DNA of 64,000 bases. Source: an uncultured Candidatus Saccharibacteria bacterium (GTDB lineage Bacteria > Patescibacteriota > Minisyncoccia > Phycocordibacterales > UBA9973). Each line of letters starts with the position of its first letter. The first letter of the stretch is position 1. The position numbers were made by a program, and so were the translations under genes. The notes under the pieces are model-generated. The model was not told the origin of the DNA. It was given only the letters and a program-made list of their open reading frames with translations, and made no database searches. Shown one piece after another: positions 9,998-58,335 of the stretch. Location of the stretch: the NCBI GenBank assembly GCA_964544225.1, contig CAZIZK010000002.1:2557-66556 (forward strand), given 5' to 3'.

Positions 9998-11236
9998 ATG
10001 ATACATAAAGATGAAAAAAGGGTAGTAATAGTTGGTGCAGGTTTTGCTGGTATACGGGCAGCGTTGGACTTGGAAGAAAGAAAGTTACCGAATACAAAGA
10101 TTACACTAATAGCCAACAAGCACCACTTTGAATATTATCCACGTATATATCGTGTGGTAACTGGTGAGAGTCCTTTGGAGGTGTGTATCCGACTCGATGA
10201 AATATTTGCTGGTACAGATGTAGACGTAATTGTAGACAGTGTTGCAAGTGTTGATACGGCCAATCATAAAGTTATCGGTTCAAGTGGCTCAAACTATGTA
10301 TATACCGACCTTGTTATGGCACTCGGTAGTGAGACAGTCTACTTTGGTATTGAAGGTGTAAAGGAAAGAGCCTATGGATTCAAATCAATAGAAGAAGCTC
10401 TAAAGTTAAAGGCACACTTGCACGATATGTTCGATAAATACCTCGCTTCTGATAAAGAGAATCTAGTATCACAATTGCATGTAGTTGTGGTAGGTGGTGG
10501 ACCATCAGGAGTAGAGTTCGCAGGTGAACTGAATAAATATATGCGTACATTAGCAAAGCGCCATGGTATAGACAATACATTTATAACCGTAGATATTGTG
10601 GAGGCAGCGCCAAGACTGGTGCCAATGTTGCCAGAAGATGTATCAAAGAAGATACATAAAAGGTTGCACAACTTGGGTGTAAACATATTCCTGAATCGAA
10701 CTGTGGTAAAGGAGGATGTAGACGAGATCGAGATGAAGGACATGTCTATGAAGACCAATACAATAGTTTGGACAGCAGGCTCACGACCGAACCACTTCTA
10801 CGCGACAGTTGCAGGGCTTGATCTACATAAAAGTGGCAGAGTGTTGGTAGACGAATATATGCAAGCTTCTAAATTGCCACATGTTTATATCCTTGGCGAT
10901 TCTGCCCTTACGAAATATTCAGGTTTGGCCCAAACTGCAATATACGATGGTGAGTTTATCGCAGATAATCTGTATAGGGAATATACAGGCAAGACAAAGA
11001 AGAAATATAACCCAAAGAAGGTTGCATATGCTGTGCCTGTTGGAAAACATTGGGCAGCTGTATCTGTCGGCCCGTTCAAGACATATGGGTTCATCGCATG
11101 GGTTATCCGCCAGATAGTGGACTTGCGATTCTTCCTTTCTATATTACCGTTCCGTAAAGCGTTACGAGCATTCCGATCTGAGGCACACTTGTGTGAATCA
11201 TGCGAGACTTGCGACGCATTGATAGATAAAGAATAA
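9998..11236 (+). CDS. ndh: Type II NADH dehydrogenase / FAD-dependent pyridine nucleotide-disulfide oxidoreductase
   Basis: Two Rossmann dinucleotide motifs, VVIVGAGFAG and VVVVGGGPSGVE. 412 aa. Confidence 0.75.
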   Translation: MIHKDEKRVVIVGAGFAGIRAALDLEERKLPNTKITLIANKHHFEYYPRIYRVVTGESPLEVCIRLDEIFAGTDVDVIVDSVASVDTANHKVIGSSGSNYVYTDLVMALGSETVYFGIEGVKERAYGFKSIEEALKLKAHLHDMFDKYLASDKENLVSQLHVVVVGGGPSGVEFAGELNKYMRTLAKRHGIDNTFITVDIVEAAPRLVPMLPEDVSKKIHKRLHNLGVNIFLNRTVVKEDVDEIEMKDMSMKTNTIVWTAGSRPNHFYATVAGLDLHKSGRVLVDEYMQASKLPHVYILGDSALTKYSGLAQTAIYDGEFIADNLYREYTGKTKKKYNPKKVAYAVPVGKHWAAVSVGPFKTYGFIAWVIRQIVDLRFFLSILPFRKALRAFRSEAHLCESCETCDALIDKE

Positions 11237-11245
11237 TAAATAAAA

Positions 11246-11280
11246 ATCTGGAAGTAATACTTCCAGATTTTTATTTATTT
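11246..11280. terminator. Bidirectional rho-independent terminator between ndh and murA
   Basis: Perfect 11-bp palindrome ATCTGGAAGTA-A-TACTTCCAGAT flanked by an A-run on one side and a T-run on the other. Confidence 0.55.
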
Positions 11281-16588: not shown

Positions 16589-18859
16589 TTATTTCTTGTT
16601 ATTTACCAGATTGTCGTCGAGTTTATGAGGGTTGTGGTTCTTACACATCTTGTTGGAACAACGCTCGGGGATTGTCTTTGTACCTTCCATCATTAATGAT
16701 CCACAGTATTTACATATATTGCCTGTCGGCTTTGCCTTTATAGCGTTCTTGCAGTCTGGGTAGTTAGAACAAGAATAGAATATTCCAAATCGGCCACGGC
16801 GCTCCATCATGAGGCCCTTTTTACAAGTAGGGCATTGTACATCTGTCATCTTCTTTTTCTTTTCCTCTTCATCCTCCTCTATATATTTACACTTTGGATA
16901 GCGTGAACATGATATGAATGAGCCAAATTTACCTTCGCGTAGTACTAGGTGGCCGAGTTCTGGTACCTTTGTACTCTTGCGCTTCTTTCTGCCATTTTTA
17001 TCTAGGCCAGAGTCTTCCACAGCGGTGCCACACTTTGGACAAGGGCGGCCTAGGTCCTTTGGACCTTCGAGTTCTTTACCTTCTAGATTCCTCGCACCGA
17101 CACAGTCTGGGTAGTTAGCACATGAATAGAACTTGCCATTGCGAGCCAATTTTACAATCATGTTGCCACCACACTTTGGGCACACCATATCATCTGGTGC
17201 GTCACCCATGTTTGTGGCTTTAGCCAATTTGTCCTTTTCCTTCAATTCCTTTTGAAATGGAAGATAGAAATCTTTCAAAGTCTTTTCATATTCGCGTTCA
17301 CCATTAGAAATATCATCGAGCTTGTCCTCCATGTCGGCAGTAAATGTATCAGAAATATATTCAGCAAAGTTATCTTCCAAGAAGCTCGATACCACATCGC
17401 CAGTATCAGTAGGGAAAAGTGTACGGCCTTCTTTGTTTACATAACCGCGCTCTTCTATAGTACGCATAATAGACGCGTATGTAGATGGGCGGCCAATACC
17501 ACGAGCTTCCAACTCTTTCACAAGGCCTGCTTCTGTATAGCGACCAGGTGGAGTAGTTGCCTTCTCAGTATCTTTTAGTTCGATCAATTTCAATTCTGCG
17601 CCTACTTGCATCTCGGGTAGTTCCACATCTTCACCGCGAGCATCTGTGTCGCAGGCAAGCCAGCCCGGGAACAATACTCGGGATCCATTGGCAGTAAAGT
17701 CAGGGATAGAACCTTCTTTTATATTTGCCACTATCTTTGTCTTCATTAATTTTGCATCAGACATCTGGCTCGACACTACACGCTCCCATATCAGGCGATA
17801 CAGTCTCTTCTGTTCTTCATTATTACCAACACTTATCAAGTCAACATGAGTTGGGCGGATGGCTTCGTGGGCTTCTTGGGCGTTCTTTGACTTTGTCTTG
17901 TATGAATGAACTTCGGCATATTCACTACCATACTTCTTCTCGATAACTTTTATTATCTGATCCTGTGCAACTTTTGAAATATTTGTACTGTCGGTACGCA
18001 TGTATGTAATATGACCAGCTTCGTACAACTTCTGTGCGACTTGCATAGTGCGTGAAGGGGAGAAGCCGAGGCGTGATGATGCCACCTGTTGTAGCGTACT
18101 TGTAGTAAATGGCGCACGGGGTGAACGCTTCTGCTCGCTCGCTTTCAGGTCAGTGATATACCACTTATTACTATTGCCAAGTTCCAATATCTTGTCGACA
18201 ACTTTTTTGTCGCGAGGTTCCTCGACACATGACAATGTTAATTTGTCTTTTTTGTTTGTTTCGAATAACCCTTCGAGTACCCAGTATTGTTCTGGTACGA
18301 ATGCACGGATCTCGCGCTCGCGTTCCATGATGATACGTAGTGCAGGGGACTGCACACGGCCAGCACTCAAACCATAGCGCACCTTCTTCCATATTATTCC
18401 TGACAAATCATAACCCACTAGGCGGTCCAATACACGGCGAGCTTCTTGAGCACGACGTAGATCGGTGTCGATCTTCCTCGGTTCCTTCAATGCTTCCTCT
18501 ACTGCTTCCTTTGTAATCTCGTGGAAAGTCACACGCTTTATAGGGGCCTTCACCTTCTTATCACTTTTCAATAGTTCTTCGATATGCCAAGCGATGGCTT
18601 CACCTTCGCGGTCCGGGTCGGTTGCAAGCATTATTTCCTTTGCACCTTCAGCTAAGTGTTGAAGTTCGCTAACCACTTTTTCTTTGCCTTTTGATATTTC
18701 GTAATGCGGAATAAAGCCACCGGGTATGTCGATAGCTTTCTTGTTAGACTTTGGCAAGTCACGCACGTGACCTACAGACGCACGCACAGTATATGCACCG
18801 TCCAGATACTTCTCTATAGTCTTTGCTTTACTTGGTGATTCTACGATTAACAACTTCAT
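16589..18859 (-). CDS. topA: DNA topoisomerase I with C-terminal zinc ribbons
   Basis: TOPRIM domain (MKLLIVESPSKAKTI), the conserved topo IA motif RTDS with the catalytic Tyr in its expected context, and multiple C-x2-C...C-x2-C ribbons. Confidence 0.95.
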   Translation of the reverse strand: MKLLIVESPSKAKTIEKYLDGAYTVRASVGHVRDLPKSNKKAIDIPGGFIPHYEISKGKEKVVSELQHLAEGAKEIMLATDPDREGEAIAWHIEELLKSDKKVKAPIKRVTFHEITKEAVEEALKEPRKIDTDLRRAQEARRVLDRLVGYDLSGIIWKKVRYGLSAGRVQSPALRIIMEREREIRAFVPEQYWVLEGLFETNKKDKLTLSCVEEPRDKKVVDKILELGNSNKWYITDLKASEQKRSPRAPFTTSTLQQVASSRLGFSPSRTMQVAQKLYEAGHITYMRTDSTNISKVAQDQIIKVIEKKYGSEYAEVHSYKTKSKNAQEAHEAIRPTHVDLISVGNNEEQKRLYRLIWERVVSSQMSDAKLMKTKIVANIKEGSIPDFTANGSRVLFPGWLACDTDARGEDVELPEMQVGAELKLIELKDTEKATTPPGRYTEAGLVKELEARGIGRPSTYASIMRTIEERGYVNKEGRTLFPTDTGDVVSSFLEDNFAEYISDTFTADMEDKLDDISNGEREYEKTLKDFYLPFQKELKEKDKLAKATNMGDAPDDMVCPKCGGNMIVKLARNGKFYSCANYPDCVGARNLEGKELEGPKDLGRPCPKCGTAVEDSGLDKNGRKKRKSTKVPELGHLVLREGKFGSFISCSRYPKCKYIEEDEEEKKKKMTDVQCPTCKKGLMMERRGRFGIFYSCSNYPDCKNAIKAKPTGNICKYCGSLMMEGTKTIPERCSNKMCKNHNPHKLDDNLVNNKK

Positions 18860-18980
18860 CCCGTTAGAAGTAGAGAATCTTTAGATTCTCGTACATAACT
18901 TAAATTAATAAAATCAAAATATTACGATTATTTGAATATAATTCCCGTAGCTTGAATAACATATATGACTTCTAACGGGA
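18860..18980 (-). repeat. Structured leader repeat, copy 1 (12-bp closing stem CCCGTTAGAAGT/ACTTCTAACGGG abutting the topA ATG)
   Basis: Perfect 12-bp inverted repeat encloses about 97 nt, including hairpin GAGAATC-TAAA-GATTCTC. The 3' arm ends exactly at the start codon. ATGAAT lies at the distal end. Confidence 0.7.
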
Positions 18981-19076
18981 TTCATATCTGCCCAGTATTA
19001 CACGAAACATAATTTTTTTGCAAATTAAATGACCGATGCGTATAAATACGACACCGGCCATTTTGTGAAATTTGTC

Positions 19077-19568
19077 CTACTGAACCTCGTAAGTTCTATA
19101 GGCTAAAATGCTATCTTTTTTTATTAATTCTCTAATTTTAGGATTGCATTTTATAACAAGCTTAGAACAATGATTATACAAATAATCCTGTAAATCATTT
19201 TCTGTTTTAAAAAAAGTTCCACTAGTTCTATTTGTGTCTGACATCACGAATTCAATAATCGGGTTTTTTGCTGTATCGTTTCTTATCTCGAATATTGAAA
19301 AATCATCAGGTGTAAAATAATTTACCAAGGTGTCTTTTCTAAAGACCCATTTGAAATAGAACTTACTCCTACGATATTTCTTGTCATATCCTAATATGTG
19401 GTCTGAATCAATGGACATCAAGGGGAATGTTTGAGAAGAGAGTTTGTATTTTTTCTCATATTCTTTACCCCTGTTTATTCCTTCTTGAAATGCAAACTGG
19501 TCACAAGACACAACCAGCAAACTAATAAAAATGATAGATAAATAATAGTAATTTTTCATAACTGACAA
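19077..19568 (-). CDS. Putative lipoprotein, unknown function
   Basis: Signal peptide with lipobox LLVVSC. 163 aa. Confidence 0.55.
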   Translation of the reverse strand: MSVMKNYYYLSIIFISLLVVSCDQFAFQEGINRGKEYEKKYKLSSQTFPLMSIDSDHILGYDKKYRRSKFYFKWVFRKDTLVNYFTPDDFSIFEIRNDTAKNPIIEFVMSDTNRTSGTFFKTENDLQDYLYNHCSKLVIKCNPKIRELIKKDSILAYRTYEVQ

Positions 19569-19746
19569 TTTTAATTTTTTATTAGTCTATAATATAAAAT
19601 AGCACTTGTCAAGTTCTCCTTATTTCCCCATACTCTTCCCTTATTAAATCTTTTGCAAATTTCACCTTATGTAATTAAGGACTTTTTACTATTGACTTTT
19701 TAGTATAAATATTGTAATTTTGGTTTAAAATAATATTAATTTAATA

Positions 19747-20520
19747 ATGAGTAATTCAATTAATGCTGCTTTCGTAGTTGAGCACGCAAGAAGTAAAACA
19801 AAAGGCAGAGGACCTTCTCTTGGTTTTATGGGAATTAAAAACCCCAAAAAAGCTTTAGAAAAGGCTACTTTTTTCTACAACCTGATACAGAACCTAATAG
19901 ACTCAAAGCCTCACAAGGAAAAAAGTGAAATCAGATTTCGAGAATTCAAAGATGAAGATTTTGCCAAGATGAGTCCTTTTGATAATTGCTTCGTAAGAGT
20001 AAAAAATCTGGGAGGAGAGTTCAGATATGGCCAACTTGATTTTTACTTTGTTACCGAGAATGGAAAAATCATTGATGCTAATTTTTTCTTTGAAAATGAA
20101 AAATCTATGAAAGACAGGGATATTGAGTATGATTTCAAAGTTCGATACGGGTATAGATATGATTTGGGGGATCTAAAAAATGATGTAGAAAGTATTTGTT
20201 CTTACATGCAATCAGTTCATAGAGAAGAACTAGTTTATATCATTTTGGATTTTCCTCATTTTATGGAAACATCTGTTCTCTGGCTGTCTGATTTTAAGCG
20301 GTTGTCGTTCTCTGAATCTCACTTTTCAAGCATTCCTGCTATTGAAAAAATAGTTGATGACATCTCAAGAGACCGAATCAGGGATGAAAAAGAACAACAA
20401 AAACTTCATGCCCGGAGGGATGCAAAAATAGCTGAACTCACCAAAAATGGGGACAGAGTATTCATGTGTCCTTCCTGCGGAAGAATTAGTGGCTCAAGCT
20501 CAGGGCATTACTGTGCCTAA
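19747..20520 (+). CDS. Hypothetical protein with a C-terminal C-x2-C...C zinc-ribbon
   Basis: 257 aa ending FMCPSCGRISGSSSGHYCA. Bracketed by a duplicated dprA 3' end. Confidence 0.55.
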   Translation: MSNSINAAFVVEHARSKTKGRGPSLGFMGIKNPKKALEKATFFYNLIQNLIDSKPHKEKSEIRFREFKDEDFAKMSPFDNCFVRVKNLGGEFRYGQLDFYFVTENGKIIDANFFFENEKSMKDRDIEYDFKVRYGYRYDLGDLKNDVESICSYMQSVHREELVYIILDFPHFMETSVLWLSDFKRLSFSESHFSSIPAIEKIVDDISRDRIRDEKEQQKLHARRDAKIAELTKNGDRVFMCPSCGRISGSSSGHYCA

Positions 20521-20550
20521 GTAAGAGATTCAAAATCAAAACAATTATAA

Positions 20551-20589
20551 AAGCTTATTATCTCAAAAGGATAGTAAGCTTATTTTTTT
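20551..20589. terminator. Rho-independent terminator (AAGCTTATTATC..GATAGTAAGCTT plus T-run)
   Basis: 12-bp stem with one G-U pair and a 7-nt loop, followed by T7. Lies between convergent genes. Confidence 0.5.
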
Positions 20590-21451
20590 ATATCCTCCTT
20601 ATCTCCCCATACTCTTCTTTAATCAAATCTTTTATTTCCATTATGGAAAGAAGAGCGCCGGCGCGCGAGGCATCCATGCCACTGGCACGGATCAATTCAT
20701 CACGAGGCATTGGTTCGAGAAGCAGATCTATGATCTTCATTTCATCTTTACCACAGTCGGCATATTTCTCTTTATCTGTTTGAAGTGGCTTGTCTATTGC
20801 AAAGCCGAGTGCATCGAGCAATTCATCGCTATTGGTGACTGGTGTGGCACCTTGGCGTATCAGGTTGTTGGTACCTTTTGAATTTGGGGAGAAGGCGGAC
20901 CCTGGTACAACCAATACATCACGATTGTAGTCCAGGGCCATGCGTGCAGTGATAAGTGTGCCCGACTTTTCTTGGGCTTCTATTATTAGTACCGCTTTGG
21001 ACAATCCTGCCATCAGGCGGTTGCGCTGAGGGAATGAATATAATAATGACTTTTCATCGGGTAACATTTCAGAAAGTAGGCAACCACCAGCATCGACTAT
21101 TTCTTGGGCGAGTTTTATATTGGACCGTGGGTACAGAGCCGAATTGTCCAGGCCCGAGCCTGGCATAGAAAGTGTGATCAATCCATTTTTCAATGCTGCA
21201 CGGTGGGCGATAGTGTCGATACCGAGTGCCAGGCCCGACACTATTACAATAGGGTAACCTTTTAATCCGGCGATCAACTTCTCGCATATTTCTTTGCCAT
21301 ACGAGGTAAAGTTTCGTGAACCGACAACAGCTAGGTAGACATAATCCTCTGGAGGCAATTCACCCCTGCGAAAAAGTTGTTTAGGAGGTTGTGGAATCTC
21401 GAGCAGAGGCTTTGGAAATTCCTCCTCGTTTAATTTAAAAATATCTTCCAT
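20588..21451 (-). CDS. dprA: DNA processing protein A (Smf)
   Basis: DprA Rossmann-like core (LAVVGSRNFTSYG...VIVSGLALGIDTIAHRAAL). 287 aa. Confidence 0.85.
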   Translation of the reverse strand: MEDIFKLNEEEFPKPLLEIPQPPKQLFRRGELPPEDYVYLAVVGSRNFTSYGKEICEKLIAGLKGYPIVIVSGLALGIDTIAHRAALKNGLITLSMPGSGLDNSALYPRSNIKLAQEIVDAGGCLLSEMLPDEKSLLYSFPQRNRLMAGLSKAVLIIEAQEKSGTLITARMALDYNRDVLVVPGSAFSPNSKGTNNLIRQGATPVTNSDELLDALGFAIDKPLQTDKEKYADCGKDEMKIIDLLLEPMPRDELIRASGMDASRAGALLSIMEIKDLIKEEYGEIRRI

Positions 21452-21573
21452 CCCGTTAGAGATAGGTAATCTTTAGATTACCGTACATAAATTAAATAAT
21501 AATATCAAAATTGAAAGTAATCTTTTAAAATAATCACCATAAGAAATACAAACATATATAATCTCTAACGGGA
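21452..21573 (-). repeat. Structured leader repeat, copy 2 (closing stem CCCGTTAGAGAT/ATCTCTAACGGG abutting the dprA ATG)
   Basis: Same architecture as copy 1, with compensatory changes in the stem and in the inner hairpin (GGTAATC-TAAA-GATTACC). ATGGAT lies at the distal end. Confidence 0.7.
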
Positions 21574-21626
21574 TCCATATTCAATTCGTATTTGTTTATT
21601 ATACCATTTTTGGTTATACTGTCTGT

Positions 21627-22934
21627 ATGTTAGACATCAAATTCATTCGTGAAAATACAGATATAGTAAAGGCAGGAGTTGCAAAGAAGAACTCGAGCGT
21701 CGATATCGACGCCCTTATAAAGCTCGACGACCAGAGGCTAGAGGCTCTAAAGAGGACCGAGGTTCTACGTGCCGAGCAGAACCGTATGAATGGGTCTATT
21801 TCTGTCGAGAAGGATGCATCTGTCCGCGCACAGATGATTGAAGAGATGCGCCTAGTAAAAGAAGATTTCAAAAAAGAAGAGGAGAGTCTAAAGGATATCA
21901 TGCAACAGTGGCAGGGTATGATGCTAAAGATCCCGAATATTCCATCTGTCGACACTCCAGAAGGTCCAGACGAAAGTGGCAACCAAGTTATCCGTCAGTG
22001 GGGGGAGAAGCCACAGTTCAGCTTTACTCCAAAGGAACATTTCGAAATAGGGCGTGCATTGGGCCTTATAGATACCGAGACAGCTGCCGAGGTAGCATCT
22101 TCACGTTACTCATATCTAAAGGGTGACTTGGTTATGATGCAGTTCGCACTGATCCAAATGTGTTTAAATATTTTAACCAACAAAGAAACTCTACAGAAGA
22201 TAGCAACTGAAGCCGGCGTGTCTATCGATGTAGACGCTTTTATGCCAGTGATCCCACCAGTATTTATCCGCCCACTAGTTCAGGTAAAGATGGCGCGCAT
22301 GATGGCACCCGAGGACCACTACATGTTCCCGAACGATGACCTGATGCTCATCGGTAGTGCTGAACATACACTAGGTTCAATGCATATGAATAAAATATTT
22401 GAAGAGAGTGAGTTGCCAATACGTTATGCTGGGTACTCTACTGCATTTCGTCGCGAGGCTGGTACTGCAGGTCGTGATACAAATGGCATATTGCGCCAGC
22501 ACCAGTTCGACAAGTTGGAGATGGAAGTATTCTCTCTTCCAGAGAACTCTATCCAAGAGCAGAACTTCCTCGTAGCTATCCAGGAACATGTATTGAAGAC
22601 TCTGAACTTGCCATACCAGGTGATATCAGTATGTAGTGGTGACATGGGCTTTCCAGATACACGCCAGATCGATATAGAAACATGGATGCCAGGTCAGAAC
22701 CTATACCGTGAGACTCATAGTGCCGACTCTACCGGAGGATTCCAATCACGCAGGCTCAATACTCGTGTGCGCCGTGCAGATGGCAAAATCGAGCCCGTAC
22801 ATATGAATGATGCAACAGTTGTGGCAATAGGCCGTACACTAATAGGTATTATAGAGAACTATCAACAAGAAGACGGCAGTATCCGCGTACCAGAAGCTTT
22901 GAAGAACTACCTAGGTAAAGACGTTATTAAATAA
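21627..22934 (+). CDS. serS: Seryl-tRNA synthetase
   Basis: N-terminal coiled-coil arm plus class II motifs (FRREAGTAGRDTNGILRQHQFDKLE). 435 aa. Confidence 0.95.
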   Translation: MLDIKFIRENTDIVKAGVAKKNSSVDIDALIKLDDQRLEALKRTEVLRAEQNRMNGSISVEKDASVRAQMIEEMRLVKEDFKKEEESLKDIMQQWQGMMLKIPNIPSVDTPEGPDESGNQVIRQWGEKPQFSFTPKEHFEIGRALGLIDTETAAEVASSRYSYLKGDLVMMQFALIQMCLNILTNKETLQKIATEAGVSIDVDAFMPVIPPVFIRPLVQVKMARMMAPEDHYMFPNDDLMLIGSAEHTLGSMHMNKIFEESELPIRYAGYSTAFRREAGTAGRDTNGILRQHQFDKLEMEVFSLPENSIQEQNFLVAIQEHVLKTLNLPYQVISVCSGDMGFPDTRQIDIETWMPGQNLYRETHSADSTGGFQSRRLNTRVRRADGKIEPVHMNDATVVAIGRTLIGIIENYQQEDGSIRVPEALKNYLGKDVIK

Positions 22935-22943
22935 TATTTTAAT

Positions 22944-23819
22944 ATGGCCAAAGCTAAAAGCTCGCTCGTTACATCTCCACGTATAGAGGAAATCAAACGC
23001 CGAAAGAAGAGGCGTATTCGTTTTGCTATACTTTTCTATTCCGTATCTTTTATCGTACTGGTTGTTTTGTTTACACTCGTGTCTCGTATACCAAAACTAC
23101 ATATTAAAAATATTGAAGTGAACGGCACACATATAGTAGACAGCACCCAGGTAATAGACTATACAAATAGCCAGATAAGTGGGCGCTATTTATATTTGTT
23201 CGATAAGAAGAATGCTTTCATTTACCCAAATAATAAAATACAGAAGGACCTGGTAAAGAAGTTCCCACGAATCAATAATATCGACATATCGTTGCGAGGC
23301 TTCCATACTATTGTTATAGATATCACCGAGCGAACTGGTTCGTATCTATGGTGTGGGGCAAGTATTCCAGAAGTCGTAAGTGATGCGGGGGACAATTGTT
23401 ACTTTGTAAATTCCGATGGAAAAGTTTTCGACCAGGCGCCATACTTCTCGGGTAATGTTTACTTCAAGTTTTATATACCTATCGACACTGTCGATGATGT
23501 TTTTAATAAGCAAGTTTTAGATCAACCAACTTTCCAGAAAGTGATATCATTTACCGATGGGTTGGAGGCACTGGGCGTGCATGCTGTGTCAGTGGTTATG
23601 AATAACCCTGCTGAATATGCATTCCATCTAGATCGCAAGAGTAATATTGCAGAACCTGTAATATATTTCAATAGTGAGAATGATTTAAATAAAATATTTC
23701 AGAATTTCTCATCGGCCATGAGTAAAGACGAGTTTAGAAATCAGATAAATACAAAATATGATGTTTTGCAATATATTGACCTAAGGTTTAATAATAAAGT
23801 TTTATATAAATTCCGCTAA
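22944..23819 (+). CDS. FtsQ/DivIB-like cell division protein (POTRA domain)
   Basis: Basic cytoplasmic N-terminus, single TM, POTRA-like IKNIEVNGTHIVDSTQVIDY. 291 aa. Confidence 0.55.
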   Translation: MAKAKSSLVTSPRIEEIKRRKKRRIRFAILFYSVSFIVLVVLFTLVSRIPKLHIKNIEVNGTHIVDSTQVIDYTNSQISGRYLYLFDKKNAFIYPNNKIQKDLVKKFPRINNIDISLRGFHTIVIDITERTGSYLWCGASIPEVVSDAGDNCYFVNSDGKVFDQAPYFSGNVYFKFYIPIDTVDDVFNKQVLDQPTFQKVISFTDGLEALGVHAVSVVMNNPAEYAFHLDRKSNIAEPVIYFNSENDLNKIFQNFSSAMSKDEFRNQINTKYDVLQYIDLRFNNKVLYKFR

Positions 23820-23824
23820 TGAAT

Positions 23825-23943
23825 CCCGTTAGAAGCCGCGGTCGCAAGTAAATAAATATTAATTATGATACAAGATAAAATTTTAATTTATAAATATAAT
23901 ACAGAATGTCGTGATTTTTTGATCGCGATCTGCTTCTAACGGG
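23825..23943 (+). repeat. Structured leader repeat, copy 3 (closing stem CCCGTTAGAAGC/GCTTCTAACGGG abutting the dus ATG)
   Basis: 12-bp perfect inverted repeat enclosing about 95 nt. The 3' arm ends at ATG 23944. ATGAAT at 23819-23824 overlaps the upstream TAA stop (TAATGAAT). Confidence 0.7.
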
Positions 23944-25077
23944 ATGAATAATTTCTGGCAAAATCTTCCAAAGCCTTTTATGGCACTTGCCCCTATGGCT
24001 GACGTTACCGACCCGGCATTTCGACGTATCATAGCAAAGTATGGCAAGCCCGATGTTACCTGGACCGAGTTCGTATCTGCCGACGGCTTGATGAGTGCAG
24101 GTAGGGAAGTATTGAAGAGGGACCTAGAGTATAGCGAGGTGGAACGGCCGATAGTTGCTCAACTCTTTTCCTCGCACCCGGATCGGATGCGTGGCGCAGC
24201 GAAGCTGTGCGCCGAGCTCGGCTTTGATGGTATCGATATAAACATGGGATGTCCGGATCGTAGTATAGAGAAGCAGGGCGCCGGCGCCGCCATGATCAAG
24301 ACTCCAGAGATAGCCGCGCAGATTATCCAAGCAGTGAAAGACGGTATAGCAGATGCGGGCAAGGATATCCCCGTATCAGTGAAGACTCGAGTAGGGTACA
24401 ACCAAGTTCAGATAAAAGAGTGGATACCATTCATCCTTTCACAGAATATTGATGCCCTGACAGTGCATTCAAGAACCAGGAAGGAAATGTCCAAAGTTCC
24501 AGCGCATTGGGAATATATAAAAGAAGTGGTAAAGATCCGCGACAAGATGGGTATAAAAACAAAGATATTGGGTAATGGTGATGTACGCGATATTGCCCAT
24601 GCCAGACAATTGGCAAGTGAGTCTGGTTGTGATGGTGTAATGATCGGCCGCGCAATATTTGGTAACCCGTGGTTGTTTGGAAAGGGAGCTTCTTCTCGTT
24701 CTGAATATATTCCTTCCAAAGACACGAATAATTTTCTGGTGAAAATTTTCTCTTCTCGCGCCAGAAGCATGGTGAAGGGCCTTTGGCAGAAACATATTCT
24801 TCACTCGAAGAAGCAAGACGACTCACATAAATATTGGCTACATGTGGAAAATACTATTCCAGTAAAGGAACGGTTGGAAGTGATGGTAGAGCATATGGAA
24901 CTTTTTGATCAGTTACTCGGTGACATAAAGAACTTTGCCATTATGAAGAAGCACTTCAAGGCGTATGTAAATGGCTTCGAAGGTGCCAAAGAACTCCGCA
25001 TGAAGCTCATGGATTGTCACTCTGTACCCGAAGCCCGCACTATCGTTGCAGAATTTCTAAAGACATTTAAAATGTAA
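23944..25077 (+). CDS. dus: tRNA-dihydrouridine synthase
   Basis: Dus N-terminus LAPMADVTDPAFRR and TIM-barrel FMN site. 377 aa. Confidence 0.85.
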   Translation: MNNFWQNLPKPFMALAPMADVTDPAFRRIIAKYGKPDVTWTEFVSADGLMSAGREVLKRDLEYSEVERPIVAQLFSSHPDRMRGAAKLCAELGFDGIDINMGCPDRSIEKQGAGAAMIKTPEIAAQIIQAVKDGIADAGKDIPVSVKTRVGYNQVQIKEWIPFILSQNIDALTVHSRTRKEMSKVPAHWEYIKEVVKIRDKMGIKTKILGNGDVRDIAHARQLASESGCDGVMIGRAIFGNPWLFGKGASSRSEYIPSKDTNNFLVKIFSSRARSMVKGLWQKHILHSKKQDDSHKYWLHVENTIPVKERLEVMVEHMELFDQLLGDIKNFAIMKKHFKAYVNGFEGAKELRMKLMDCHSVPEARTIVAEFLKTFKM

Positions 25078-51351: not shown

Positions 51352-51586
51352 TGGATAAATTTAAACCAAAATGCTAAACTTATTTGACAATTAAATATGT
51401 TGCCTAAACCAAAAGCTTCGCTTTTGGCATGGCGAAAAACCCGATGAAAGATAAAGAACTCCTAGTCAGAGTTCGCCTTTCATCGGGTCGTGCGGGGAAA
51501 CCCGCATGGGTGGTCGCAAGACTGCCGAGCTGGCTAGGAGCTTTTTGTAAAACTAGCGAACCATTATTAGTAAAAATTATAAATTT

Positions 51587-57240: not shown

Positions 57241-57257
57241 ATAAATAAAACAAAAAG

Positions 57258-57285
57258 AAAACTCCCGCTCGGGAGTTTTCTTTTT
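57258..57285. terminator. Bidirectional rho-independent terminator
   Basis: ACTCCC-GCTC-GGGAGT hairpin flanked by an A-run and a T-run, between convergent genes. Confidence 0.55.
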
Positions 57286-57288
57286 GTT

Positions 57289-58335
57289 TTATTCTTCGTC
57301 TTTTGGATTATCTATCGCTATCAGTTCTATACCTGTGGCGACCCCGGTAATACGGGTGACATCTTTGTCGATCTTTTTAAACTCTTTACCCGAGTTGTTG
57401 TAGTGGTTCACTACAGTGGAAAGTGAGTTACCCAATTTCTTATGGTATTCGTCATACGACTTGAGGTGTTTACCTAGTTCCTCAACCCTTTTTACTATAT
57501 CCTTTGCGCTCTCTTCGATTTGCATAGCCTTTAGGCCCTGGAGCACTGTCTGCAAGTAGGCTAGGAATGATGTAGGGGACACGATGATAACTTTGTATTT
57601 ACTTGCGGCCCTTTGTATCAAGTTCTCTGTATCTTCGGTGACTGCACCTATTTTATTTATAATCAAATCATAATATATAGCTTCGTGCGGTATGAACATG
57701 AAGGCAAAGTCCATTGTGCCATTTTCCGGCTGGATGTATTTGCTAGTTTCTGTTATACGATTCTTCAGGTCGTTTAGGAACACTTTTTCCAATCTTTCCT
57801 TTTCAGTTTTGTCGCTGGTCTCGCTGATACGGTTGTAATTCTCGAGCGAGAATTTAGAATCGATAGGGATGATCTTGTCTTTTACAAATACTGCTGCGTC
57901 GACAATAGTTCCGTCGGCGAATCCGTATTGCATCTGGTAGCTTCCTGGTGGCATGACATTCTTCAATAATGTTTCTAGGTAGTATTCACCCAACACCCCG
58001 CGCTGTTTTGGGTTCTTCAGTATGTCTTGTAGGCTCTGAAGCTGGTCGGTAAATGACATGACTTGTTTGTTGGTCTCATCTAGCCTGGTCAGCCTCTCGG
58101 TAATGTCACGGATAATATTTTGTGATTGATTTGTCTGGTGGCGGATAGTTTCGTTCACTTCCTTTTGACTCTCGGACAATTTCGCATCCATGGTGCGAGT
58201 CAACTCATTCATCTGCTGTAGCAGTAGGGCAAAGCCGGTGTCATCCTTTACCACTTGCTTCTTGCCACGTGTTAATAGTAGGGCTATCACAACCCCCACA
58301 ACAATCCCGATAATTATTATTAAAATACTGTTCAT
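57289..58335 (-). CDS. rmuC: DNA recombination protein RmuC
   Basis: N-terminal TM, long coiled-coil, RmuC C-terminal nuclease-like domain (GVLGEYYLETLL...FMFIPHEA). 348 aa. Confidence 0.8.
   Translation of the reverse strand: MNSILIIIIGIVVGVVIALLLTRGKKQVVKDDTGFALLLQQMNELTRTMDAKLSESQKEVNETIRHQTNQSQNIIRDITERLTRLDETNKQVMSFTDQLQSLQDILKNPKQRGVLGEYYLETLLKNVMPPGSYQMQYGFADGTIVDAAVFVKDKIIPIDSKFSLENYNRISETSDKTEKERLEKVFLNDLKNRITETSKYIQPENGTMDFAFMFIPHEAIYYDLIINKIGAVTEDTENLIQRAASKYKVIIVSPTSFLAYLQTVLQGLKAMQIEESAKDIVKRVEELGKHLKSYDEYHKKLGNSLSTVVNHYNNSGKEFKKIDKDVTRITGVATGIELIAIDNPKDEE

Follow-up and report, generated by a model that had tools for sequence, protein, structure and literature searches.

A probable mobile palindrome at start codons of Candidate Phyla Radiation bacteria

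What places a folded repeat of roughly 120 nt exactly at the start codons of topA, dprA, and dus? The three copies lie on a contig of an uncultured Candidatus Saccharibacteria bacterium (GenBank assembly GCA_964544225.1, contig CAZIZK010000002.1), of which a 64-kb stretch, positions 2,557 to 66,556, was analyzed and is called the window here. A preliminary description of this DNA had read the repeat as a shared leader device tied to the functional link between topA and dprA, and had taken compensatory changes in its closing stem to rule out a transposon end. We consider it probable (at about 80%) that the repeats are instead a small, previously undescribed mobile palindrome that resembles MITEs, the miniature transposable elements with inverted repeats, and inserts at start codons.

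Three palindromes and their flanking repeats

The 9-mer CCCGTTAGA was found six times in the window, once in each of the two arms of the three copies, as opposed to 0.30 expected occurrences, and none of 100 shuffled sequences reached six. The structured repeats were indeed present where they had been described. They form three elements of 121 to 123 nt, the first two on the minus strand and the third on the plus strand, and the last base of each is the A of an ATG (topA, dprA, and dus, respectively). In gene sense, the three copies share the layout ...ATGRA-T-CCCGTTAGA-RRY...RYY-TCTAACGGG-A-TGRA... and comprise the following features.

Copy 1, 18859-18980, minus strand: 122 nt, local-hairpin type, T-CCCGTTAGA-AGT ... 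ACT-TCTAACGGG-A; covariance model score, 77 bits
Copy 1, last base, 18859, minus strand: A of the topA ATG (18857-18859)
Copy 1, 12-nt arms, 18860-18871 and 18968-18979, minus strand: last three arm positions are AGT/ACT
Copy 1, inner hairpin, 18873-18890, minus strand: GAGAATC-TAAA-GATTCTC, 1 nt before the 3' arm
Copy 1, duplication TGAA, left 18981-18984 and right 18855-18858, minus strand: the right one lies within the topA start ATGAAG
Copy 1, relic ATG, 18983-18985, minus strand: formed by the left TGAA plus 18985
Copy 2, 21451-21573, minus strand: 123 nt, local-hairpin type, 75% identity to copy 1; covariance model score, 70 bits
Copy 2, last base, 21451, minus strand: A of the dprA ATG (21449-21451)
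Copy 2, 12-nt arms, 21452-21463 and 21561-21572, minus strand: last three arm positions are GAT/ATC
Copy 2, inner hairpin, 21465-21482, minus strand: GGTAATC-TAAA-GATTACC, with two compensatory pairs relative to copy 1
Copy 2, duplication TGGA, left 21574-21577 and right 21447-21450, minus strand
Copy 2, relic ATG, 21576-21578, minus strand
Copy 3, 23824-23944, plus strand: 121 nt, extended-stem type; covariance model score, 101 bits
Copy 3, last base, 23944, plus strand: A of the dus ATG (23944-23946)
Copy 3, 12-nt arms, 23825-23836 and 23932-23943, plus strand: last three arm positions are AGC/GCT
Copy 3, second helix, CGCGGTC 23837-23843 with GATCGCG 23921-23927, plus strand: inside the 13-bp stem, with ATCT unpaired
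Copy 3, duplication TGAA, left 23820-23823 and right 23945-23948, plus strand
Copy 3, relic ATG, 23819-23821, plus strand: overlaps the TAA stop (23817-23819) of the upstream ftsQ-like open reading frame (ORF)

Two features of these copies had been overlooked, namely, a 4-nt direct repeat on both sides of each and a second ATG just upstream. The 4-nt repeats and the relic ATG are the signature of an insertion between the A and the TGRR of a start codon, with duplication of TGRR.

The closing stem had been described as having nine identical positions followed by three that vary yet remain complementary. This account holds: complementarity at the last three arm positions is perfect within each copy, and covariation across the whole family (see below) backs it. 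The inner hairpin of copies 1 and 2, with its compensatory changes, was also seen as described, except that it lies 1 nt rather than 10 nt from the 3' arm. The 12-nt arms are separated by 96, 97, and 95 nt, so of the three values given earlier (97, 98, and 95) only the last was right. The start codon does sit at the foot of the helix, but the helix is longer than the 12 bp first assigned to it. Once the outer T...A is counted, the inverted repeat is 13 bp long and ends on the A of the ATG, and usually an R-U pair is added as the 14th. As had been noted, the element always abuts a start codon and no Shine-Dalgarno sequence precedes that codon; the invariant ...TCTAACGGG directly before the ATG has no purine-rich run resembling one.

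The gene after copy 1 was identified as TopA by a Pfam match. Fold z-scores of the three copies relative to shuffled sequences ranged from -3.5 to -4.8. A covariance model built from the element family (R1) found exactly these three copies in the 64 kb, as in the preliminary description, and scored the gene-sense strand 20 to 50 bits above the other. Neither fuzzy matching nor the model revealed extra or degenerate copies in the window.

Mobility and the choice of target

To place the window copies in a wider family, we relied on a scan for an exact pattern in which the 10-nt ends were fixed, with one genome per species. The scan yielded at least 134 further copies on at least 120 contigs, nearly all of them from metagenome-assembled genomes (MAGs) of the Candidate Phyla Radiation (CPR)/Patescibacteria. 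The hosts include Saccharibacteria, Parcubacteria/Paceibacteria, and Kaiser-, Wolfe-, Yanofsky-, Levy-, and Kazan-type MAGs. All three window copies and at least 134 others have the 13-bp ends T-CCCGTTAGA-RRY / RYY-TCTAACGGG-A. Lengths are mostly 108 to 135 nt, with short variants of 55 to 83 nt. The interior holds only short ORFs, is full of stops, lacks a transposase gene, and is not conserved in sequence in the alignment. No Rfam family matched at its gathering score or convincingly at an E value of ≤10 (the best was WsnRNA46, with 24.7 bits against a cutoff of 65.3 and an E value of 0.13). In the literature on CPR, MITE, leaderless, palindromic, or start-codon repeats, we found no description of the element, but this coverage was incomplete and a prior description cannot be excluded. 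Carriage by phages was rejected on the basis of zero matches in viral contigs.

Four copies without a clear duplication (L019 [1052-1075], L024, L050, and L104) have the left flank (G)ACTTG directly before the element, and in L024 the complement CAAG follows the right repeat. Such copies may represent a subfamily whose ends are longer, or else a nested insertion.

We compared the window with 80 metagenomic relatives that have the gene order topA-dprA<>serS-ftsQ-like-dus and SerS proteins 53 to 80% identical. In about 76 of the 80 (at least 75), the starts of topA, dprA, and dus have a single ATG and no element, and the genes are unchanged. Such an absence, which the preliminary description had named beforehand as counting decisively against its leader device, was thus observed for all three genes. 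Several close relatives with an empty topA site keep the same topA promoter. The empty sites align base for base with the filled ones; for example, L121 reads tttgcaaaaaaatattctttcgtgtaatactagacgaatatATGAAACTT where the window has tttgcaaaaaaattatgtttcgtgtaatactgggcagatATGAAT[element]ATGAAGTTG. L126 carries another variant at dus, 83 nt long and in the opposite orientation, and L150 carries a decayed 66-nt variant at topA. Across lineages, orthologous genes are occupied by different subtypes (topA three times, pilC four times, rplQ three times, as well as murG, pheT, and others).

Four tandem pairs at a single start (L074:5472-5711, L100:3562-3801, L118:6503-6721, and L014:7673-7896) are separated by exactly the 4-nt duplicated target, the gap that reinsertion into a regenerated target is expected to leave. 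The elements in L084 and L094 are highly similar in the alignment, as judged by eye, but they carry different duplications (TGAA in one, TGCG in the other). Insertion itself therefore generates the repeat, which is no recombination core, and site-specific recombination via a shared 4-nt core was rejected. The element is mobile, and its insertions are lineage specific and recurrent at orthologous genes. Target-site duplications, empty sites, tandem reinsertions, and independent subtypes at one gene together counter the earlier argument that compensatory changes rule out a transposon end.

Among the matches listed, the terminal A and the flanking TG form an ATG in 128 of 136 copies (about 12% would do so by chance). 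A perfect 4-nt repeat TGNN flanks 96 of 131; most of the remainder are one base off or have repeats of 3 or 5 nt. The duplicated sequences in these listed matches are TGAA (56), TGGA (16), TGAG (15), TGCG (4), and others; the downstream ORF has a median length of 246 amino acids (aa); and the left repeat is preceded by A in 102 copies, by G in 5, and by T in 3. This distribution matches the way start codons are used (ATG, GTG, TTG) and not a fixed ATG motif. When the ends were relaxed and the terminal base was left unconstrained, 24 further copies were obtained, 21 of which form ATG or GTG. Variants with terminal C...G rebuild GTG (L119:1344-1405, L096:6355-6472, L106:4984-5084, and L066:433-511). 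An independent sample, 681 kb of relatives chosen only by SerS, contained four elements; three are at the starts of ORFs of at least 330 aa, and the fourth also forms an ATG, but the end of the contig truncates its ORF. Integration occurs between N and TGRR of the start codon, with duplication of 4 bp, usually TGAA, TGGA, or TGAG. The last base of the element, A (G in variants), together with TG rebuilds ATG (GTG) in frame, and the original start is left as a relic.

Could a preference for TGRR, combined with tolerance of insertions outside genes, account for this pattern? A rough census of the loci gave 404 start-codon TGRR sites, about 4,100 intergenic sites, and about 21,000 coding sites. 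By this rough count, start codons comprise about 9% of noncoding TGRR sites yet hold about 90% of the copies. Sequence preference and tolerance in noncoding DNA therefore cannot yield about 90% at starts, and target motif plus neutral tolerance was rejected as a full account. A genuine preference for sequence exists as well: the second codon begins with RR in about 92% of the targets versus an estimated third or so of background ORF starts, and with AA in 59% versus 21%.

The 110 downstream genes matched 142 Pfam families, with topA being the target in 3 of the 110 and also in L150. Such diversity contradicts a leader device specific to topA and dprA. A functional theme among the targets was rejected on the same ground, the recurrence of topA, pilC, and rplQ being about that expected for second codons starting with RR.

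A Shine-Dalgarno sequence is present at 11 of 102 targets, and a -10 box ends 6 nt before the ATG at 19 of 102. The latter made targeting of the transcription start sites of leaderless genes attractive, but 41 of 84 targets are internal to operons, 12 of them with overlapping stop and start, as in copy 3, and this candidate was rejected. In L121 and L122, a dprA -10 box lies 6 nt before the ATG without a Shine-Dalgarno sequence. In relatives that keep the TAATAC box of topA (L121, L122, L135, and L136), the ATG follows 9 to 11 nt after it, likewise without a Shine-Dalgarno sequence. Leaderless or near-leaderless mRNAs appear, from such spacings, to be common in this lineage.

It is conceivable, though unlikely in our judgment, that the integration machinery recognizes translation starts as such, namely, N followed by TGRR at ATG, GTG, or TTG, both in leaderless genes and in those inside operons. 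The hairpin, the rebuilt codon, and the stops would then make the insertion silent or conditionally silent, and targeting or processing linked to RNA or to the ribosome would be possible.

Folding, orientation, and the fate of the host gene

The element consists of two stacked helices. Inside a closing stem of 13 to 14 bp, and past a conserved unpaired T on the 3' side, lies a second one, about 7 bp long. Both helices covary. In the closing stem, arm positions 11 to 13 are R, R, and Y paired with Y, Y, and R; they are Watson-Crick in 372 of 393 cells (95%), with A-T and G-C exchanged in roughly half of the sequences. Both sides had changed in 164 cells, as opposed to 60 ± 17 in shuffles and 3 to 6 in slid controls. 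The second helix is a local hairpin in 70 copies, as in copies 1 and 2 of the window, and in 38, as in copy 3, it is a distal pairing whose partner is the sequence just after the 5' arm. All of A-T, T-A, G-C, and C-G were found at the same positions of this helix. Among 127 sequences, the outermost pair, which joins the last duplicated base to the U of AUG, was A-U 90 times and G-U 31 times. These G-U pairs are the one hint for selection on RNA, confounded with the preference for RR targets.

The motif is oriented with the gene in about 93 copies and against it in 11 (about 9:1). In the window, orientation follows the gene on both strands within a span of 5 kb; replication direction therefore cannot explain the bias. 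An internal, outward-directed promoter was also rejected as its cause, there being no positional enrichment of -10 sequences and equally many of them in antisense. Inside the three window copies, no convincing promoter site was found.

Folding and orientation speak for a dedicated cis-regulatory RNA leader, riboswitch-like or protein binding, that sequesters the start codons of topA, dprA, and dus. The fold is stable and places the AUG at the foot of a 13- to 14-bp helix, the closing stem and the inner hairpin covary, the bias toward the gene is strong, the 14th pair engages the U of AUG in the numbers just given, and topA recurs as a target. Against such a leader stand its lack at the same genes in about 76 of the 80 syntenic relatives, the 142 unrelated families downstream, the target duplications and tandem copies, an unconserved interior with no core resembling a ligand pocket, and the lack of both an Rfam match and a G·U excess (see below). 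These results already contradict a regulatory leader as the primary identity of the element, and we regard it as very unlikely.

Several observations also weigh against a MITE-like element whose hairpin is under selection, and they are gathered here. Covariation between the arms is not expected of ordinary inverted repeats bound by a transposase. The closing stem contains 11 G·U and 9 A·C mismatches and so no G·U excess; the distal helix contains 8 and 10, respectively, and an unbiased count in the hairpin gave 15 versus 9. The sense strand folds only marginally better than the antisense strand (P = 0.04). Given no G·U excess and a marginal fold bias, selection at the level of RNA is not demonstrated; the paired state under selection may be that of the mRNA or of a single-stranded DNA intermediate. 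The invariance of the 10-nt ends among the scan matches arose by construction, as the pattern fixed them; their occurrence across such distant lineages is not by construction. In about 10 otherwise intact copies the relic ATG is mutated, so translation of an upstream ORF starting there cannot be essential.

The last of these observations concerns the mobilizing enzyme. Of five features by which MITEs (defined in PMC3184786) were judged here, the family displays four: terminal inverted repeats, a target-dependent duplication, small size without a transposase gene, and insertion polymorphism. For the fifth, a cognate insertion sequence (IS), neither an autonomous copy nor a linked transposase was found in 1.6 Mb of loci around the copies. 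Nor did that 1.6 Mb contain a credible long pair of ends around an ORF or a protein cluster present in more than 7 of the 120 loci. By eye, we take the top protein clusters near the copies to resemble PilB/PilC, DnaK, RpoA, MreB, ClpP, and SecY. Two orphan ORFs beside copy 1 were rejected as a transposase, having no Pfam support. A MITE-like element of this kind would be moved by a trans-acting enzyme that makes 4-nt staggered cuts, and selection on the folded single strand, whether transcript or DNA intermediate, would keep the hairpin.

Alternatively, the element could move as a folded single-stranded DNA hairpin, in the manner of attC, REP/RAYT, or IS200/IS605, rather than as a double-stranded MITE, with covariation reflecting the DNA intermediate. 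The arms and second helix covary while G·T and A·C mismatches are equally rare, which fits a DNA-level or two-strand constraint better than one on RNA. A length of 55 to 135 nt, conserved ends, a free interior, and an unpaired T by the 3' arm resemble attC, and strand-specific use of the hairpin could give the orientation bias without selection. However, known hairpin-dependent systems make no target duplication, whereas here 4 nt, dependent on the target, is the rule. The core order GTTAGA...TCTAAC is the reverse of the RYYYAAC...GTTRRRY of attC, the flanks are syntenic housekeeping genes rather than cassettes, and there is no constant flanking tetranucleotide, unlike in IS200/IS605. We consider movement as a single-stranded hairpin possible but improbable.

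How might a gene remain expressed after a MITE-like insertion at its start? Owing to the duplication, neither the stop upstream nor the start downstream is lost. A short ORF encoding M-(N/D/S)-P-V-R-... also arises on insertion and runs through the 5' arm. In the 3' arm, TC-TAA-CGGG-ATG-A provides one frame with a stop 4 nt before the AUG and another with an ATGA overlap, and the third frame gives a fusion. In 30 of 93 elements, the frame of the upstream ORF stays open across the interior, versus 12 and 10 for the other frames. In the window, these short ORFs and the native upstream signals are as follows.

Upstream ORF, copy 1, 18914-18985, minus strand: MNPVRSHICYSSYGNYIQIIVIF and stop; made by the insertion, begins at the relic ATG, and passes through the 5' arm
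Upstream ORF, copy 2, 21534-21578, minus strand: MDPVRDYICLYFLW and stop
Upstream ORF, copy 3, 23819-23851, plus strand: MNPVRSRGRK and stop
Native topA promoter, 18995-19023, minus strand: TTGCAA-17-TAATAC, with the -10 box ending 9 nt before the relic ATG
Native dprA promoter-like site, 21598-21625, minus strand: CAGACA-16-TG-TATAAT, upstream of the relic ATG

The signals reported earlier, TTGCAA-17-TAATAC for copy 1, TG-TATAAT for copy 2, and the TAATG stop overlap for copy 3, are all present. The short ORFs of the three window copies stop 50 to 90 nt before the AUG, which counts against an upstream-ORF role being essential.

The element would be cotranscribed with its gene, so that a start once leaderless or tightly coupled would gain a structured leader of about 125 nt containing a short upstream ORF. 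Ribosomes arriving from upstream would open the stem and terminate beside the AUG, making the insertion tolerable; alternatively, the helix, about 20 bp long, could be processed, or initiation could simply be internal. This RNA-level account of continued expression is tentative, and we think it clearly less than even in probability. An effect of the element on expression, as a side effect or an adaptation of a mobile element, is likely.

A further proposal is that the insertion is silenced at the level of RNA or the ribosome, by intron-like excision with one copy of the repeat, by cleavage at the base to give a leaderless mRNA, or by a hop of the initiating ribosome from the relic AUG to the identical AUGRR across the helix, in the way of T4 gene 60 or mitochondrial "byp" elements. 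The helix does bring together identical AUGRR sequences from both sides, many targets are leaderless (19 of 102 with a -10 box 6 nt before the ATG), and the stacked helices, at about 20 to 21 bp, have the size of a substrate for a double-strand RNase. Nevertheless, Rfam revealed no ribozyme or intron signature, the "take-off" AUG is not followed by a stop codon, about half of the targets are operon internal and not leaderless, and the relic AUG decays in some intact copies and so is not needed. Of the explanations weighed here, silencing of this kind seems to us the least probable, and very unlikely.

Local context, significance, and known systems

The three copies lie within 5 kb (18855-23948), with none elsewhere in the 64 kb, while relatives have about 1 copy per 170 kb. 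This clustering probably reflects local hopping and not a shared regulon; a recent burst in this genome would fit as well. Directly beside copy 1, between topA and dprA, is a low-GC insert of about 1.6 kb (about 19000-20590; about 30% GC versus about 44% in neighboring genes). It contains two orphan ORFs, at 19077-19568 on the minus strand (163 aa) and at 19747-20520 on the plus strand (257 aa), the latter with a weak C-terminal zinc-ribbon match. The topA-dprA distance in close syntenic relatives (L124 and L121) is about 50 to 500 nt.

Elsewhere in the window, a full-length match to the LOOT RNA family (RF03000) at 51401-51526 on the plus strand (88.9 bits versus a cutoff of 46.4) is unrelated to the element. 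Perfect palindromes at 57244-57293 and 11235-11279, with arms of 24 nt and 22 nt, respectively, loops of 1 to 2 nt, and A/T-rich outer parts, are probably bidirectional terminators.

If this is confirmed, the start codon itself would be a new kind of target for a mobile element, one spread across a superphylum of ultrasmall uncultured bacteria. This raises the question of how DNA integration finds start codons that share only NTG-RR. The insertions offer hundreds of natural "experiments" in which a 13- to 14-bp helix and a short upstream ORF are placed on an AUG without a Shine-Dalgarno sequence, and they could show the route by which the CPR ribosome initiates: leaderless, by reinitiation, or after processing. 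Were homing to start codons true, translation start would define a transposon niche, and the element would be a natural source of control by upstream ORFs or hairpins in bacteria that otherwise use leaderless mRNAs. For annotation, a relic ATG followed by a 120-nt insert can mislead gene callers and motif finders, and repeats of this type should not be taken for regulons. The element could also serve as a marker of recent genome dynamics in CPR populations.

Several known systems invite comparison. The Correia elements (CREE) of Neisseria, with a TA duplication, 26-bp repeats, and many intergenic contexts, are the best-studied case of a bacterial MITE. Like these and other MITEs, the CPR family is short, gene-less, and multicopy, has terminal inverted repeats and a target-site duplication, and is polymorphic for presence and absence; as with Correia elements, it would be cotranscribed with its neighbors as a long hairpin able to alter expression. 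It differs from them in that it duplicates TGRR, sits on start codons in about 90% of cases, and rebuilds the codon with its own end. Covarying arms and inner helix, the 9:1 orientation, and a lack of sequence similarity also set it apart. We know of no cognate IS for the CPR element.

The REP2 repeats of Neisseria (CREN) and similar upstream inverted repeats of Borrelia are about 100 to 150 nt long, lie just upstream of genes, and include an ATG and stem-loops (PMC3184786). The CPR element likewise lies immediately upstream of a gene, includes the ATG, and has internal stem-loops. However, REP2 carries a promoter and a ribosome-binding site, whereas neither a position-specific -10 sequence nor a Shine-Dalgarno sequence was found in the CPR element. 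To our knowledge, REP2 lacks both a target duplication and terminal inverted repeats that close on the ATG.

The attC sites of integrons are imperfect palindromes of 57 to 141 bp with short conserved ends and unpaired bases, located just upstream of the next ORF. Conserved ends, a free interior, conserved unpaired bases, covariation at the level of structure, and a position upstream of an ORF are common to both. The CPR element differs in its motif order GTTAGA...TCTAAC, seen on both strands, in its 4-nt duplication, and in its setting among syntenic core genes, where a single element comes and goes without a cassette. REP/BIME or IS200/IS605-derived repeats are short G+C-rich palindromes or subterminal hairpins with a constant flanking tetranucleotide and no duplication; the CPR element has true terminal inverted repeats about 100 nt apart and variable duplicated flanks.

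Mycobacterial MIRUs are also short repeats between the genes of operons, and their small ORFs overlap the flanking stop and start so that coupling is kept. Unlike the CPR element, they are direct repeats arranged in tandem, lack terminal inverted repeats and hairpin covariation, and are not specific for start codons across hundreds of genes. The T4 gene 60 gap and mitochondrial "byp" resemble it as hairpin-forming inserts between identical "take-off" and "landing" triplets, but these are inside ORFs and must be bypassed, whereas here the downstream AUG is usable and no bypass signals were seen.

Rickettsia palindromic elements (RPE) insert in frame inside coding sequences and are translated as an extra peptide. 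Repeat insertions of this in-frame type have been reviewed (PMC3184786). The likeness lies in palindromic mobile repeats of reduced genomes that insert where the host product survives; the CPR element differs in remaining outside the protein, at the start codon, usually with stops. The element is thus distinct from Correia elements, REP2, and RPE: its niche is the start codon, which it rebuilds, its arms covary, and it is biased in orientation.

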